Assembly (NCBI GenBank): GCA_050247435.1 | Contig: JBFWUF010000008.1 | Span: forward strand, 22,704-86,703 | Source: Blastocatellales bacterium | GTDB lineage: Bacteria; Acidobacteriota; Blastocatellia; RBC074 | Length of the DNA: 64,000 nt | Reading direction: 5' to 3' | In this document: piece by piece, positions 30,155-41,972 of the stretch | Layout of the letters: each line of letters starts with the position of its first letter | How positions within the stretch are numbered: position 1 is the first letter of the stretch | The notes under the pieces: model-generated | The model's input: the letters and a program-made list of their open reading frames with translations, nothing else | Told to the model about the DNA's origin: nothing | Database searches by the model: none | Translations under genes and position numbers: made by a program

Positions 30155-30739
30155 TCAGCCCTTCATCACTTGCAGTTCGTTCTTCACGCTGAAGACATTC
30201 GCGACGCCATTGGCTCTGATGTTCGCCAGGTTGCTATCCGCCTGGCTGTTGACTAAGCCCTTCAACGTCACATTGCCGTTTTTGACAATGATGTGAATCG
30301 AAGGAACGACCTGGAAGCCGTAGCGGTAGAGCGGTCCGTTGAAGCTGAAGATCGCCCGCGCCTCGCGCAAACGAATCTGATCGTCCATGGGTGAAAGCGG
30401 CAGCACTTCGATGTTGTTGATGACTTTCTCAACGCCTTTGAGCTTGTTCACCACGTGCTCCGCGTCCGATTTCAACGTCGGGCGTGTAACCTGACCGCTC
30501 AGGATCACGGTGTTGTCTTCCACCCGGAATTCCAGCCAATCGAAGAGGCTGTAATAAGGCAGCATCGTCAGCTCGTGCCGAACTTCTTTCGTGATGGTCG
30601 CCTGATCGCTGGTCTGGCCGCTCCGCGTTGCTGTCGCTGATCGTTTGATCGCTTTGTCATTTCCATTGGCCAGCGCCATCGTGCCGGTGGCGAAAGTCAA
30701 GGAAATGATCATCAGTGCAGTAAAGATTCTCGATTTCAT
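30155..30739 (-). CDS. BON-domain periplasmic protein (OsmY-like, two BON domains)
   Basis: Signal peptide followed by two repeats of the BON pattern (V...GTV.L.G.V......A...A..V.GV..V.N.I.V). Confidence 0.75.
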   Translation of the reverse strand: MKSRIFTALMIISLTFATGTMALANGNDKAIKRSATATRSGQTSDQATITKEVRHELTMLPYYSLFDWLEFRVEDNTVILSGQVTRPTLKSDAEHVVNKLKGVEKVINNIEVLPLSPMDDQIRLREARAIFSFNGPLYRYGFQVVPSIHIIVKNGNVTLKGLVNSQADSNLANIRANGVANVFSVKNELQVMKG

Positions 30740-31055
30740 GATTCATTTCCTCCTACTCTTGAACTGTTGGTTTACGGCTCTTTCCTTCAGCGACCGCCAA
30801 ACCGCAGACCAACTGCTTCTCTTATCTGCGGTCGCTCGCTTTGATGAATGGCAAGCATCGTGCCGCGACGTTGGCAAAAGCTTTTTTTATCGCGTGAACG
30901 CCGCAACGCTCTTTATTAATAGGCATTCAGCGCTTTTTTCAGAATCTTTCAGGCGTGACCCGAAACAGGTGGCTGATTACGCTTGTGGCGAGATCGCCGC
31001 ATCGCATTCGCGTGCGCTATCTCGCCACATTCGCTGGTGAGTTGTTGCGAAATGT

Positions 31056-38270: not shown

Positions 38271-40595
38271 ATGAAACCCCTCAGATTGCATACAAAAACG
38301 GCTTTCCTCGTGTCGGCCATTACGCTGGCGATGTTCATGGCGACGCTGCTCCTGGTCAGCGTGCGAATGGCCAGTCTGGTGAGCGAAGACGAAAAGGCGC
38401 TGGCCCGATTGCAGGCGATCAGTCTGGCGGAACAGATCAGCCTGATGCCGGCGTCGCGCAACCAGGACGACATCAATCGCGCGGTTTCGCAGGCGCGCGC
38501 CGCGCGTCCGAACGTAGTTTCCGTGCGCGTTTGGAAGCAGACCGGCGATGGGCTGGTCGAAAGCGCCGCCGCTGGTGATTTCGCTGCGCAGGAGAATCCG
38601 CCGAAAGAGATACATGATTACGCGACTGCCGCGATACACCGTCGCGACGGAGCGACCGGAATCATCCCGCCGCGCGATTTCACAGTCGAGAAAGAGCATG
38701 AAATTCATTACCACGTTTTTACGCCGGTCACCGAGCAAGGCAGGTTTTATGGAATCGTGGAGGTGACGGAGCGGCTGGATAACATTCCCTCCATCGTCCG
38801 GCGGTTCGCCCAAACAGCCGCGTTGCTTGCGCTCACCGCTTTCGTGTTGACGATGCTCGCGATTTACACGTTGTTCCGGTATCTGATCTACCGCCCGATG
38901 AATGAACTTGACGGGGCGATGGAGCAGGTCAAAGAAGGCTCGCTTGAAATACGAATTCCGGTTTCGAGTGAAGACGAATTTGGTCGCCTGGCAGCAGGAT
39001 TCAACCGGATGATCAGGCGCATCCGCGAATTGACCCGCGAGCGCGAGGCGCAAGCCGTGACCTTGCAAGAGCGCGTCCGCGAGGCGACCGCCGAAACCCG
39101 CGCGGCGGCGGAACGCTATCGCCTGATCTTCGACAGCAACCCGTTGCCGATGTGGGTTTATGATTCCACAACCCTGCGGTTTTTTACTGTGAATGAAGCC
39201 GCCGTGCAAAATTACGGCTGGACGCGCGAGGAGTTTCTGCGGATGACCGTCGAAGACATCTGCTTGCCGGAAGACCGCGCCAAACTGCTGGCGGATGTGG
39301 CGCGGCATCAACGAAAAGACGAATCGTTGATTGACGTGGAGCTTTTGTCGCACGACCTGATGTTCGAAGGGCGGCGGGCGCGTCTGGTGATTGCGGCGGA
39401 TGTGACGGAAAAGAAGCGCATCGAGGCCGGCTTGATGCGTTCTCAGCGGCTCGAATCCCTGGGCACGCTCGCCAGCGGCATCGCGCACGATCTCAACAAC
39501 ATCCTTTCGCCGCTCTCGATCTCGACTTTTCTGTTGCGTTCGAAAGTCTCCGACCGGAGCGGGCAGCAGACGCTCGACACCATGGAAGAAGTCGTCGAAC
39601 GCGGCAGCCAACTGGTCAAACAGGTGCTCTCGTTCGCCCGCGGCGCGGAGGGCGAGCGCGTCCCGCTCGATCCAAAACGCGTACTTGGCGAAGTGGCCGG
39701 CATTCTCAAAGAGACTTTCCCGAAATCCATTCGTATTCAATGCAATGGGGCTGGAGTGCGCGGAACCGTGCTCTGCGACCCGACGCAACTGCATCAGGTG
39801 TTGATGAACCTTTGCGTCAACGCGCGCGATGCAATGCCGCGGGGAGGCGACCTGGAGATCACGGCGGAGGATGTCGAGCTTGACGAGCATTCCGCGCAAT
39901 TGCTGCCGGGCGCGAAACCGGGCAGGTATGTGATGATCTCGGTCAGAGACGCCGGCGTGGGCATTCCCGCGCGGGTGATGGACAAAATCTTCGATCCGTT
40001 CTTCACGACAAAAGAGCAAGGCAAAGGCACGGGCCTGGGCCTGTCAACCAGCCTGGGCATCGTGCGCGGCCACGGCGGATTCATCAACGTTTACAGCGAA
40101 CCCGGAACCGGCACGCTGTTCAAAGTCTATTTGCCAACGCTCGACGCCGGGGCCGAGGCATCGGAACAGAAGGCGGAGGACGAAGCGCCACTGGGCACCG
40201 GCGAATTGATTCTGCTGGTAGACGACGAAGAGCCGATCCGCCGCACCACGCGCGGCCTGCTCGAAGCGTCCAATTACCGTGTCATCACGGCTTCAGACGG
40301 CGGCGAGGCTTGCGCGCTGTATCGCGAGAGGCAAGAGGAGATCAAACTTGTGCTGACCGATATGATGATGCCGGTGATGGATGGCGCGGCGGCGATCAAG
40401 GAACTGCGCCGCCTCAATCCACGCTTGCCGATCATTGCCAGCAGTGGGTTGGCTGAAACCGGCAAGGAAGGGCAGGCGCTGGCCTCGGGCGCGCAAAAGT
40501 TTTTGTCGAAGCCATACACGGCTGTGCATTTGTTGCGGGCTGTGCATAAATTGCTGCGCGACGGCCACCCCAACTCCGATCAAGAGGAAAAATAG
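38271..40595 (+). CDS. hybrid sensor histidine kinase/response regulator (TM-HAMP-PAS-HisKA-HATPase-REC)
   Basis: TM and HAMP. PAS ([14 protein letters not shown]). HisKA ([14 protein letters not shown]). HATPase ([16 protein letters not shown]). C-terminal REC ([18 protein letters not shown]). Confidence 0.9.
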
Positions 40596-41972
40596 ATGAA
40601 ACGCATTCTGATCATTGATGACGACCGCGCATCGTGCAACCTTTTGCGTGAGTTGTTCAAATCCCAGGGCTGGGAAGCTGAAACCGCGCAGACGCCGCAA
40701 CAGGCGTTGGATTTGGTCTCGCGCGGGAAATTCGATCTGCTGCTGAGCGACATCAACCTGCAAGCCGAACTGTCGGGCATTGATTTGTTGAAGCAGTTGC
40801 GAGGCGAGGCTCCGGTGATCCTGATGACGGGCTACGGCACGCTCGACACTGCTGTCGCCGCTGCGCGTGAAGGCGCATGGGACATCATCTCGAAGCCGAT
40901 TAAGCCGCACGAACTGCTGGCAATGGTCGAGCGAGCGATTGAAAGCAAGTCGAGGCAGGATGAAGAATCCGAGGCTGCCAACGCGCCGGATGATAATCAG
41001 GCGATGGTCGGACGCTCGCCCGCCATGCTCGAACTTTATAAACAGATCGCCAGGGTTGCGCCGTCGCGTTCCACCGTGCTGATCGTTGGCGAATCTGGCA
41101 CGGGCAAGGAACTCATCGCCCGTTCGATTCACCAGCACAGCGAGCGCCCCAAAGGCCCCTTCGTGCCGGTCAACTGCGGCGCGCTGACGGAAACCCTGCT
41201 CGAAGCCGAACTCTTCGGATTCGTGAAAGGCTCGTTCACCGGCGCGGCGGCGGATCGTAAGGGGCTGTGGGAAGAGGCTGCGGGCGGCACACTCTTCCTG
41301 GATGAGATCGGCGAAACGTCTCCGGCGATGCAGGTCAAGCTGCTGCGCGCTCTGCAGGAGAAAGAGATTCGCCGCGTCGGCTCGACAAAAAATATCAAGG
41401 TGGACGCCCGCGTCGTCGCCGCAACCAACCGCGACCTGGAAAAAGAAGTCGCGGCGAAAACCTTCCGCGAGGATTTGTTCTACCGCCTGAGCGTGGTCGC
41501 GTTGCAGGCACCTGCATTGCGCGAGCGACGCAGCGACATCCCGCTGCTCGCCGCACGGTTTCTCAGCAGCGCGGCGGAAAACGCGCGGCGCGACACACTC
41601 ACGCTTCCCGAGGAAACCATCAAGACGCTGGCCGCTTACGACTGGCCGGGCAATGTGCGCGAATTGGAATCAGCGATTGAATATGCCGCGCTGCAATCTC
41701 GCGGAGCCGAGATCACGCCCGCCGACCTGCCGCCGAAACTGCAATCCGACGAAGTGCGCGAGGCCGCCGAGCGTTCGCCGCTCACAGCCTTGTTTGACGA
41801 TCTCCCCACGCTCGATGAACTCGAACGCCGCTACCTGCTGCACGTCCTGGAAGTGGCCGGCGGCAGTCGAACGAACGCCGCAAAAGTGATGGGCATTGAC
41901 CGGCGCACGCTGTACCGCATGGCGGAACGTTTCAAAATCAGGCTGGATGAGGGCGAGAACGAGAGCGAATGA
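40596..41972 (+). CDS. sigma-54-dependent Fis-family response regulator (NtrC-like enhancer-binding protein)
   Basis: REC (ILIIDDD, LLLSDINL). AAA+ sigma-54 interaction domain (GESGTGKE, ESELFGFVKGSFTGA, TLFLDEIG). C-terminal Fis-type HTH (TNAAKVMGIDRRTLYR). Confidence 0.9.
   Translation: MKRILIIDDDRASCNLLRELFKSQGWEAETAQTPQQALDLVSRGKFDLLLSDINLQAELSGIDLLKQLRGEAPVILMTGYGTLDTAVAAAREGAWDIISKPIKPHELLAMVERAIESKSRQDEESEAANAPDDNQAMVGRSPAMLELYKQIARVAPSRSTVLIVGESGTGKELIARSIHQHSERPKGPFVPVNCGALTETLLEAELFGFVKGSFTGAAADRKGLWEEAAGGTLFLDEIGETSPAMQVKLLRALQEKEIRRVGSTKNIKVDARVVAATNRDLEKEVAAKTFREDLFYRLSVVALQAPALRERRSDIPLLAARFLSSAAENARRDTLTLPEETIKTLAAYDWPGNVRELESAIEYAALQSRGAEITPADLPPKLQSDEVREAAERSPLTALFDDLPTLDELERRYLLHVLEVAGGSRTNAAKVMGIDRRTLYRMAERFKIRLDEGENESE

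Follow-up and report, generated by a model that had tools for sequence, protein, structure and literature searches.

Acidobacteria are among the most abundant soil bacteria, and to our knowledge almost nothing is known about their gene regulation. The DNA analysed here, a 64-kb stretch from the metagenome-assembled genome of an uncultured Blastocatellales bacterium (assembly GCA_050247435.1, contig JBFWUF010000008.1, positions 22,704 to 86,703; hereafter the window, in whose positions all coordinates are given), raises a question in this respect. Two −24/−12 elements had been noticed in it, in a cluster of phosphatase and envelope-protein genes, together with a gene pair for an NtrC-type activator and a hybrid kinase. 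Are these elements genuine sigma-54 promoters, and does the neighbouring two-component system control them?

Our analysis indicated that both elements are genuine-looking sigma-54 promoters, two of a cluster that numbers seven or more. We consider it slightly better than even (a probability of roughly 0.55) that one NtrC-type two-component system drives a sigma-54 envelope-remodelling regulon in this Blastocatellia-type acidobacterium. The original prediction, sigma-54 promoters in an envelope-gene cluster beside such a system, is supported, and the neighbouring system is the likeliest activator in view of conserved synteny and of an upstream site that the promoters share.

Sigma-54 elements and their conservation

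Both elements of the original prediction were recovered. TGGCGC-AATAA-TTGCT (TGGCGCAATAATTGCT; 33226..33241, plus strand, 15.4 bits) lies 25 nt 5′ of the ATG (33266) of a 92-aa open reading frame (ORF); its predicted start at about 33252 would leave a 14-nt leader with GAGG. TGGCAC-ATACG-TTGCC (TGGCACATACGTTGCC; 34732..34717, minus strand, 15.0 bits) lies 59 nt 5′ of the ATG (34658) of a DUF4136 gene. The promoter set had been undercounted, as five further elements of the cluster were overlooked. Pattern and matrix scans revealed three additional strong ones between 32.9 and 38.1 kb, all intergenic and on the minus strand. The first, TGGCATTTCGCTTGCT (38108..38093, 15.5 bits), is the top matrix match in the window and stands 38 nt 5′ of the ORF at 36406–38055, an aminoacyl-phosphatidylglycerol synthase gene, with a predicted start at about 38082. 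The second, TGGCACATCCGTTGCC (36185..36170, 14.5 bits), stands 43 nt 5′ of the ATG of a soluble PP2C gene with an AAGGAGG ribosome-binding site. The third, TGGCATCGCGTTTGCC (32950..32935, 13.5 bits), precedes the gene of a 140-aa secreted protein and probably serves the SpoIIE-type PP2C gene downstream as well. Two weaker but conserved elements on the same strand, CGGCACGATGCTTGCC (30865..30850, 12.5 bits) and TGGCACGCAAGTTACT (29200..29185, 12.2 bits), precede a BON gene and a hydrolase/flippase operon, respectively. The five strong and two weaker elements from 29.2 to 38.1 kb are all intergenic and co-oriented with a gene. Besides the two starts given above, transcription of this set is predicted to begin at about 36159, 34706, 32924, 30839 and 29174.

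Further off lies a divergent pair: AGGCACGGCGCTTGCT (12200–12215, plus strand, a matrix match) before a second BON gene, BON2, and TGGCACAACGGTTGCC (11950..11935, minus strand, 15.0 bits) before a 63-aa ORF and tatA. An equivalent of this pair is carried by one related contig, L039, at 14537/14719. The leaders of the window elements span 14–124 nt. GG and GC dinucleotides one helical turn apart (TGGCAC-N5-TTGCW) were found at eight of these elements, that is, at all except 29200..29185, where the −12 part reads TTAC and the GC is missing.

Matrix matches of at least 14 bits numbered seven in the window, versus 1.7 (maximum 4) in Markov-1 resamples. Seven of the nine best matrix matches were intergenic and co-oriented with the next gene (binomial 3e-6, intergenic DNA being 10% of the whole window). 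The bare pattern TGGC-N7-TTGC was weakly enriched (nine observed, 4.7 expected; 4 of 100 shuffles reached nine), and the statistical weight therefore rests on placement and conservation.

For comparison, 78 loci were fetched with the synthase as probe, the best of which were Blastocatellia metagenome-assembled genomes at 60–82% identity; the labels L001–L087 denote related acidobacterial contigs. Across 36 orthology-supported −24/−12 elements, GG and TT were invariant and GC was present in 32. The synthase element was found 23–42 nt before the ATG in L003, L005, L006, L013 and L039, and the DUF4136 element 58–60 nt before it in L080/81, L083, L085 and L087. The BON element lies at 103–108 nt in L001, L014 and L080/81, and the PP2C element at 25–29 nt in L001 and L008. 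The element of the 140-aa protein (14.9–18.1 bits in L001, L083, L085 and L087) stands at 136 nt in L001 and at about 170 nt in L087. The promoter of the 92-aa ORF is supported in this genome only, the sole homologue with DNA (in L085) showing no obvious element. In relatives the same promoters, with the upstream motif described below, also precede htrA-spoIIE and a resistance-nodulation-division (RND) efflux operon.

The element of the hydrolase/flippase operon is the odd one. Its form TGGCACGC-N3-TT(A/C)C, which can also be written TGGCACGCAA-N-TTAC, recurs upstream of hydrolase or flippase genes: in L001 and L006 at a distance of 52–59 nt, and in L083 in front of LPG_synthase_TM. The promoter at 29185–29200 thus has a perfect −24 half, TGGCACGC, with TTAC/TTCC in place of the −12 TTGC; it is kept in four genomes and has sites resembling those of the activator on its upstream side. 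Departures from the −12 consensus have been associated with transcription that is leaky and independent of an activator.

Two more sigma-54-like elements lack the shared upstream site. One, at 1847..1832, lies about 70 nt 5′ of an ATG at about 1762, and the other, at 2218–2233, precedes a ribbon-helix-helix (RHH) gene. Consensus promoters of the sigma-70 type were scarce in 28000–43500 (one observed, 5.2 expected), and a hand tally from gene coordinates gave an intergenic share of 18% in 28.3–42 kb, versus 10% in the whole window. The picture is consistent with long regulatory regions in this part. An Rfam scan of 28–42.5 kb gave no significant match.

A shared site upstream of the promoters

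A home-made expectation–maximization search in 30 upstream regions converged from many seeds on one motif of 16–18 bp, tTGwGGCGAwwTGGyC. It lies 85–150 bp upstream of most cluster promoters and is frequently paired at 28–30 bp. Training on eight independent window regions alone gave the same core, with a log-likelihood of 47.1 against 40.3–43.3 for shuffles. When each family was left out in turn, five of eight groups were still recognised at p 0.003–0.024 (PP2C, the hydrolase operon, BON, the 92-aa/140-aa pair and BON2); recognition failed for the synthase, DUF4136 and the 2218 element. Seven of the 14 window matches of at least 12.5 bits sit 80–150 bp upstream of sigma-54 elements. Of 41 sigma-54 matches of related loci outside the training set, 29% were accompanied by a site scoring 12 bits or more between −60 and −200; in a downstream control of equal extent the share was 2% (Mann-Whitney p = 0.005).

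The best copy in the window, of 21 bits, is at 12133–12148 (plus strand), accompanied by 12101–12116; the pair stands at −115/−87 of the BON2 promoter and scored 19.4 bits when left out (p 0.003). The 12133–12148 copy sits between the two divergent promoters of the 12-kb pair. At the BON promoter, TGCGGCGATCTCGCCACA and TGTGGCGAGATAGCGCAC (30984..31029, minus strand, 17.1–19.9 bits; 14.6 bits left out) form a pair 28 bp apart at about −181/−153. This pair is kept in L001, L014 and L080, and in L014 both arms are changed together. A reading of the 30984–31029 repeat as a plain SpoIIE terminator was considered and is less likely, since L014 has no SpoIIE and yet keeps the repeat beside BON; it could do both jobs.

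Upstream of the hydrolase operon, CTGAGGCAATTTGGGC (29262–29277, plus strand) and TTGTGGCTGGATTGCC (29311..29296, minus strand), with 18.6 and 11.4 bits, stand at about −93 to −97 and −127 (13.7 bits left out), in a block kept in four genomes. The PP2C promoter at 36185 has TTGTGGCGTTTTGGAA (36280..36295, plus strand) about 110 bp upstream, with 16.2 bits, or 15.8 when left out (p about 0.0125 against window segments). Between the divergent promoters of the 92-aa and 140-aa genes, TCGAGGCAATTTCGTC (33122..33137, plus strand) scored 17.7 bits, or 15.6 left out (p about 0.013), and lies at −120 for the former and −203 for the latter.

The remaining two promoters have weaker copies. At the DUF4136 promoter, GCGTGGTGGTTTGGCC (34817..34832, plus strand) lies at about −116 with 12.3 bits, a position kept in L080 (−114) and L085 (−118). 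At the synthase promoter, TTGAGGCGCAAATGTC (38208..38193) and CGTGGCGGAAGAGTCGTT (38177..38160), both on the minus strand, scored 11.8 and 6.5 bits at about −116/−86. These two positions are shared by four genomes, with 10–16.6 bits in L039, L005 and L003; in a fifth, L006, the pair is at −104/−74 with 15.7 and 6.8–6.9 bits. The original prediction had suggested looking for activator sites 80–150 bp upstream of its two promoters; the candidates found there are the −120 site of the 92-aa ORF and the weak −116 site of DUF4136.

The motif has the anatomy expected of activator sites, and site pairs of like spacing are known at the NtrC-dependent glnAp2 promoter. Of the other candidates tried, the short guess TCGCCACA was not enriched across the window, GGCGANNTCGCC was enriched mostly inside coding sequence, and a generic inverted-repeat search did not reveal the shared site. 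An OmpR-type regulator (25231–25926) was also considered as its binder, which is unlikely because the motif has dyad character and a fixed position upstream of −24/−12 elements.

The neighbouring two-component system as candidate activator

The NtrC-like activator and PAS/hybrid kinase named in the original prediction were borne out by Pfam domains. The first gene of the operon (38271..40595, plus strand) encodes a hybrid sensor histidine kinase with the order transmembrane (TM) segment-HAMP-PAS-HisKA-HATPase-REC, and its stop codon abuts the start codon of the second. The latter (40596..41972, plus strand) encodes an NtrC-type sigma-54 enhancer-binding response regulator, REC-AAA+-HTH_8, the proposed activator of the regulon (Sigma54_activat 237 bits, Response_reg 89.6 bits, HTH_8 39.7 bits). 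Its translation has intact Walker motifs, GESGTGKE and LFLDEIGE, and the loop GSFTGA, an A-to-S variant of GAFTGA. The best NCBIfam matches were AtoC, ZraR and NtrC, all under their equivalog cut-offs, so that it does not qualify as an orthologue of a named activator. As had been claimed, it is the only sigma-54 activator in the window: a tblastn search with the AAA+ core found no second one there. No rpoN is present among the window genes.

In seven loci the kinase/activator operon and the synthase are transcribed away from each other (L002, L005, L008, L011, L039, L048 and L056), and the motif was found in the intergenic region adjoining it in six of seven orthologous loci. In L011, L056, L048 and L002 the operon has a sigma-54 element of its own about 40 nt before the kinase start (9195–9210, 8757–8772, 8725–8740 and 2944–2959, respectively, all on the minus strand), together with a divergent sigma-54 promoter and the motif between them. 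This arrangement predicts positive autoregulation of the operon in these four relatives. The divergent gene of the operon in L048 is a BON2 homologue, while BON2 lies 26 kb from the activator in the window; the gene set therefore relocates yet remains tied to the regulator. In the kinase/synthase intergenic region of the window, a perfect 16-bp palindrome, GAGCGCCGCGGCGCTC (38210–38225), adjoins the more distal of the two candidate activator sites and may serve the kinase operon as an operator.

We infer the following mechanism. A signal would reach the membrane hybrid kinase (38271–40595), which would phosphorylate the NtrC-type activator (40596–41972). The activator would bind the imperfect palindromes tTGwGGCGAwwTGGyC, often two of them 28–30 bp apart, 85–150 bp upstream of the −24/−12 promoters, and there drive open-complex formation by sigma-54 RNA polymerase. 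The units to respond would be those of the aminoacyl-phosphatidylglycerol synthase; of a VirJ/AcvB-like hydrolase with an MprF flippase-domain protein; of two secreted BON proteins; of a secreted DUF4136 protein; of the secreted 140-aa protein with the membrane SpoIIE-type PP2C; of the soluble Stp1-type PP2C; and of the 92-aa coiled-coil protein. Together they would alter, in a coordinated way, the surface charge of the membrane and the protein content of the periplasm or outer membrane, in other words an envelope-stress or envelope-remodelling response.

Several points weigh against this reading. The motif copies at the DUF4136 and synthase promoters of the window, of 12.3 and 11.8 bits, fall to 7.4 and 6.1 bits when left out. 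The training regions of the motif were not independent, since orthologues were included, and a strictly palindromic 18-bp model fitted worse than the asymmetric 16-mer. The sigma-54 weight matrix was our own approximation of the published consensus. Sequence reading and matrix scan showed no sigma-54 element before the kinase gene in the window, and the kinase operons of L039 and L005 have none either. The hybrid kinase has no visible HPt domain for the phosphotransfer route, and the similarity of the hydrolase to VirJ is weak (27.9 bits), with no match in a search of PDB sequences. Acidobacteria usually carry many activators and 64 kb was in view, so another activator could own the motif.

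This last point leads to the alternative that survives best, namely that the sigma-54 promoters are real but their activator or activators are encoded elsewhere, that the neighbouring system controls at most the adjacent synthase or something else, and that the clustering reflects a shared theme. It draws on the weak copies just mentioned, on the motif-free elements at 1847..1832 and 2218–2233, on the 23-kb contig L083, which has regulon promoters and no activator, and on the held-out sigma-54 matches, of which just 29% had the motif, so that other activators clearly exist. Yet six of the seven orthologous loci have the motif next to the activator operon, across three different divergent partner genes and in four cases beside the operon's own sigma-54 promoter, and synthase orthologues next to the activator have good pairs of sites (L005 14.7/14.3, L002 19.0, L039 14.4 bits). 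We therefore regard control from elsewhere as unlikely, though a contender to be taken seriously.

A second alternative follows from the proposal, made with the original prediction, of a partner-switching-like module, in which the PP2C phosphatases would act on an anti-sigma antagonist and the sigma-54 promoters would merely express small outputs. Partner-switching modules (RsbU/V/W, SpoIIE/AA/AB, SiaABC) do have a counterpart here in the membrane PP2C at 31056..32216 (minus strand; DUF4118 plus SpoIIE, Pfam SpoIIE 164 bits), an RsbU/SpoIIE-type phosphatase with a sensor-like membrane N-terminus. It is weakly similar to SiaA and RssB, both of them components of circuits that resemble partner switches. 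Pfam scans of roughly 40 window ORFs, however, gave no STAS or other anti-sigma antagonist, no RsbW/SpoIIAB-type or Hanks kinase, and no sigma factor of the extracytoplasmic-function or SigB type; all HATPase_c proteins scanned were classical histidine kinases with HisKA. The soluble PP2C (35258..36127, minus strand) belongs to the Stp1/IreP family of Ser/Thr phosphatases (NCBIfam NF033484, 257 bits against a cut-off of 230; Pfam PP2C_2), which is not a partner-switch phosphatase family. Since each of the two PP2C genes has a sigma-54 promoter upstream, the phosphatases have the look of regulon outputs and not of its switch. The SpoIIE-type gene is likely co-transcribed with the 140-aa gene, as the 161-nt gap between them holds no sigma-54 match and no terminator; its orthologue in L085 stands 3′ of htrA, behind a sigma-54 element. 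A partner switch is a very improbable explanation of the cluster, though partners might be encoded in other parts of the genome.

Finally, that the −24/−12 matches are functionless as promoters and arose by chance because intergenic DNA here is GC-rich is scarcely credible: the bare pattern is enriched only about twofold and two of the nine best matrix matches are antisense inside genes (3483 and 7654), but set against this are the placement statistic, the upkeep of position and sequence upstream of orthologues at 45–85% protein identity despite diverged flanking intergenic DNA, and the second motif at a fixed distance.

Predicted targets and comparison with known systems

Returning to the regulon proposed for the neighbouring system, its predicted outputs are not only small proteins of unknown function, as had been supposed: the best-conserved targets include the synthase, the hydrolase/flippase operon and the two BON proteins. 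The synthase gene (36406..38055, minus strand) had been overlooked altogether. It encodes the C-terminal half of MprF/LpiA, with six TM helices and a synthase domain (LPG_synthase_C 268 bits). Its alignment to the NCBIfam MprF model covers positions 323–837 only (448 against a cut-off of 600), and PDB matches were LpiA/MprF chains down to 4e-64 (4v36, 6lvf). No flippase domain is fused to it; the flippase-type domain is encoded by a separate gene at 27350–28366. A stem-loop with a T-run 3′ of the synthase gene (36346..36389, minus strand; 18-nt arms, 94% complementary) is a probable terminator separating it from the PP2C unit.

The hydrolase/flippase operon (26252..29133, minus strand; Pfam) consists of a VirJ/AcvB-like alpha/beta hydrolase (28354–29133), an MprF flippase-domain protein, LPG_synthase_TM (27350–28366, 139 bits), and a second hydrolase (26252–27115). 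A VirJ-like hydrolase stands directly 3′ of the synthase in about 25 acidobacterial loci. In the window the two are 8 kb apart, and the gap holds the other genes of the proposed regulon.

Among the secreted proteins, the first BON protein (30155..30739, minus strand) is OsmY-like, with two BON domains (Pfam BON 70.6 bits, two stretches), and BON2 (12338..12730, plus strand) scored 48.8 bits. The BON and SpoIIE genes had been placed between the two promoters and the activator; both lie on the far side. The DUF4136 protein (34074..34658, minus strand; Pfam 88.9 bits) had been called a lipoprotein. It has a signal peptide, like the BON and 140-aa proteins, but none of the three has a lipobox cysteine, and they are therefore secreted proteins rather than lipoproteins. 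Its AlphaFold model is of medium confidence (predicted local distance difference test score 66.5), and a Foldseek search with it returned PelC and LptE at E 1e-4 to 1e-2 (TM-score 0.4–0.5), which suggests a fold like that of these outer-membrane-associated proteins. A metagenome scan with the DUF4136 protein gave one poor match, and searches of PDB sequences with it and with the 140-aa protein gave none.

A stem-loop, TCAGCGCCC...GGGACGCTGA (34677–34700, minus strand), falls within the leader predicted for the DUF4136 mRNA and ends some 10 nt short of the ribosome-binding site; it is kept in five lineages, with no compensatory changes. In L080 an insertion sequence (DDE_Tnp_1; 5907–6461) lies some 400 nt 5′ of the gene orthologous to DUF4136. 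The variant contig L081 lacks the SpoIIE segment, and BON there follows DUF4136 directly; rearrangement of the cluster is therefore seen even among close strains. An ORF with hydrophobic segments (33586..33903, minus strand), separated from the DUF4136 gene upstream of it by a strong hairpin, encodes a 105-aa membrane protein. It has no family match in Pfam or NCBIfam, and no sigma-54 match was seen in the 170-nt gap before it; its membership of the DUF4136 transcription unit is uncertain.

The 140-aa secreted protein (32378..32800, minus strand) gave a confident, beta-rich model that matches no solved structure. It represents an acidobacterial family often found next to BON. The cytoplasmic, coiled-coil-like 92-aa protein (33266..33544, plus strand) belongs to a very small family: an exhaustive search of 1.84 billion proteins returned itself and three other cluster representatives, and a word-indexed search itself only. 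Its homologue in L085, next to DUF4136, shares 45% identity and a conserved VLLRNARxRE block.

On the minus side of the 12-kb divergent pair, the 11950..11935 element precedes the 63-aa ORF, tatA (11462–11650, TatA Pfam match) and a 1147-aa ORF (8006–11449), which by eye looks like a deacetylase/glycosyltransferase fusion. Positions 1–8100 are mobile-element-like, with a DUF4326 protein, an RHH protein, a MobL-type relaxase (2873–5245) and a 916-aa ORF without a family match. The rest of the window holds four CusA/CzcA-type RND pump gene sets and two OmpR-type two-component systems (within 16744–22450, 43493–47928, 50096–54564 and 59563–63998), a BlaR1/BlaI-like pair (48431–50070), Nramp, two DSP-type phosphatases, one of them fused to PepSY, and a transposase (58194–59453). 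By its predicted gene content the window is densely packed with genes for stress and metal resistance. The metal-efflux, OmpR and BlaR1/BlaI surroundings and the target genes together suggest a regulon for envelope remodelling or stress, which agrees with the broad tie of sigma-54 to the cell exterior (PMC3162934).

NtrB/NtrC with glnAp2 is the archetype of sigma-54 activation by a response regulator. The locus resembles it in the REC-AAA+-HTH_8 activator beside a kinase, the −24/−12 promoters, the paired sites about three helical turns apart and about 100–150 bp upstream, and, in some relatives, the sigma-54 elements indicative of autoregulation of the regulator operon. It differs in that the activator falls short of NtrC orthology (403 bits, cut-off 559) and has another site sequence, in that its kinase is of the membrane-bound hybrid type, and in that the predicted targets concern the envelope instead of nitrogen assimilation. 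A nearer likeness is ZraS/ZraR-zraP, the sigma-54 envelope-stress system of Enterobacteria, where the kinase/activator operon is likewise divergent from a sigma-54-dependent envelope gene, the sites lie in the shared intergenic region, and periplasmic stress proteins are among the outputs. The activator is not a ZraR orthologue, however (406 bits against a cut-off of 760), and there is no ZraP homologue; the divergent target here is a lipid-modifying enzyme, and the predicted regulon extends over at least seven promoters.

Known regulation of mprF and lpiA includes GraRS/ApsRS in staphylococci and pH-dependent control in rhizobia. LpiA/AcvB is a known synthase/hydrolase pair that sets lysyl-phosphatidylglycerol levels and acid tolerance: the periplasmic hydrolase trims the lipid made by the synthase and is required at low pH (PMC13197417, PMC13135905). 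The synthase domain here is homologous, and in most acidobacterial relatives the hydrolase directly follows the synthase as acvB follows lpiA (PMC13197417). Unlike these systems, MprF is split in the window into a synthase gene and a flippase-domain gene, 8 kb separate the synthase from the hydrolase/flippase operon, and sigma-54 control is predicted. Our literature searches found no paper on sigma-54 control of aminoacyl-phosphatidylglycerol genes, nor a sigma-54 regulon or activator site described for Acidobacteria. Sigma-54 has been associated generally with genes of the cell exterior, as a "controller of the bacterial exterior" (Francke et al. 2011, PMC3162934). The predicted targets fit this theme, being lipids, secreted or outer-membrane-associated proteins, TatA and an exopolysaccharide-type enzyme; the word "Acidobacteria" is absent from the main text of that paper, and neither this gene set nor the upstream site is described there (PMC3162934).

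What distinguishes the locus is its targets (a split MprF plus hydrolase, BON, DUF4136 and two PP2Cs), the newly defined candidate upstream site, and one conserved promoter lacking the GC of the −12 part. More tentatively, and with less confidence than in the regulon as such, it may represent a previously undescribed envelope-stress response of Blastocatellia. In it, one autoregulated sigma-54 two-component system would co-induce the synthesis, flipping and hydrolysis of aminoacyl-phosphatidylglycerol, secreted proteins (BON, DUF4136 and a new beta-fold family) and two PP2Cs feeding Ser/Thr phospho-signalling, with one operon behind the conserved promoter without the −12 GC. How sigma-54 systems work is understood no differently because of this locus. 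It supplies a compact set of predicted promoters, a candidate DNA site and a candidate sensor/activator pair, all of them testable, and it would link sigma-54 to the remodelling of membrane surface charge through aminoacyl-phosphatidylglycerol, a trait on which resistance to acid, metals and cationic peptides depends in part.

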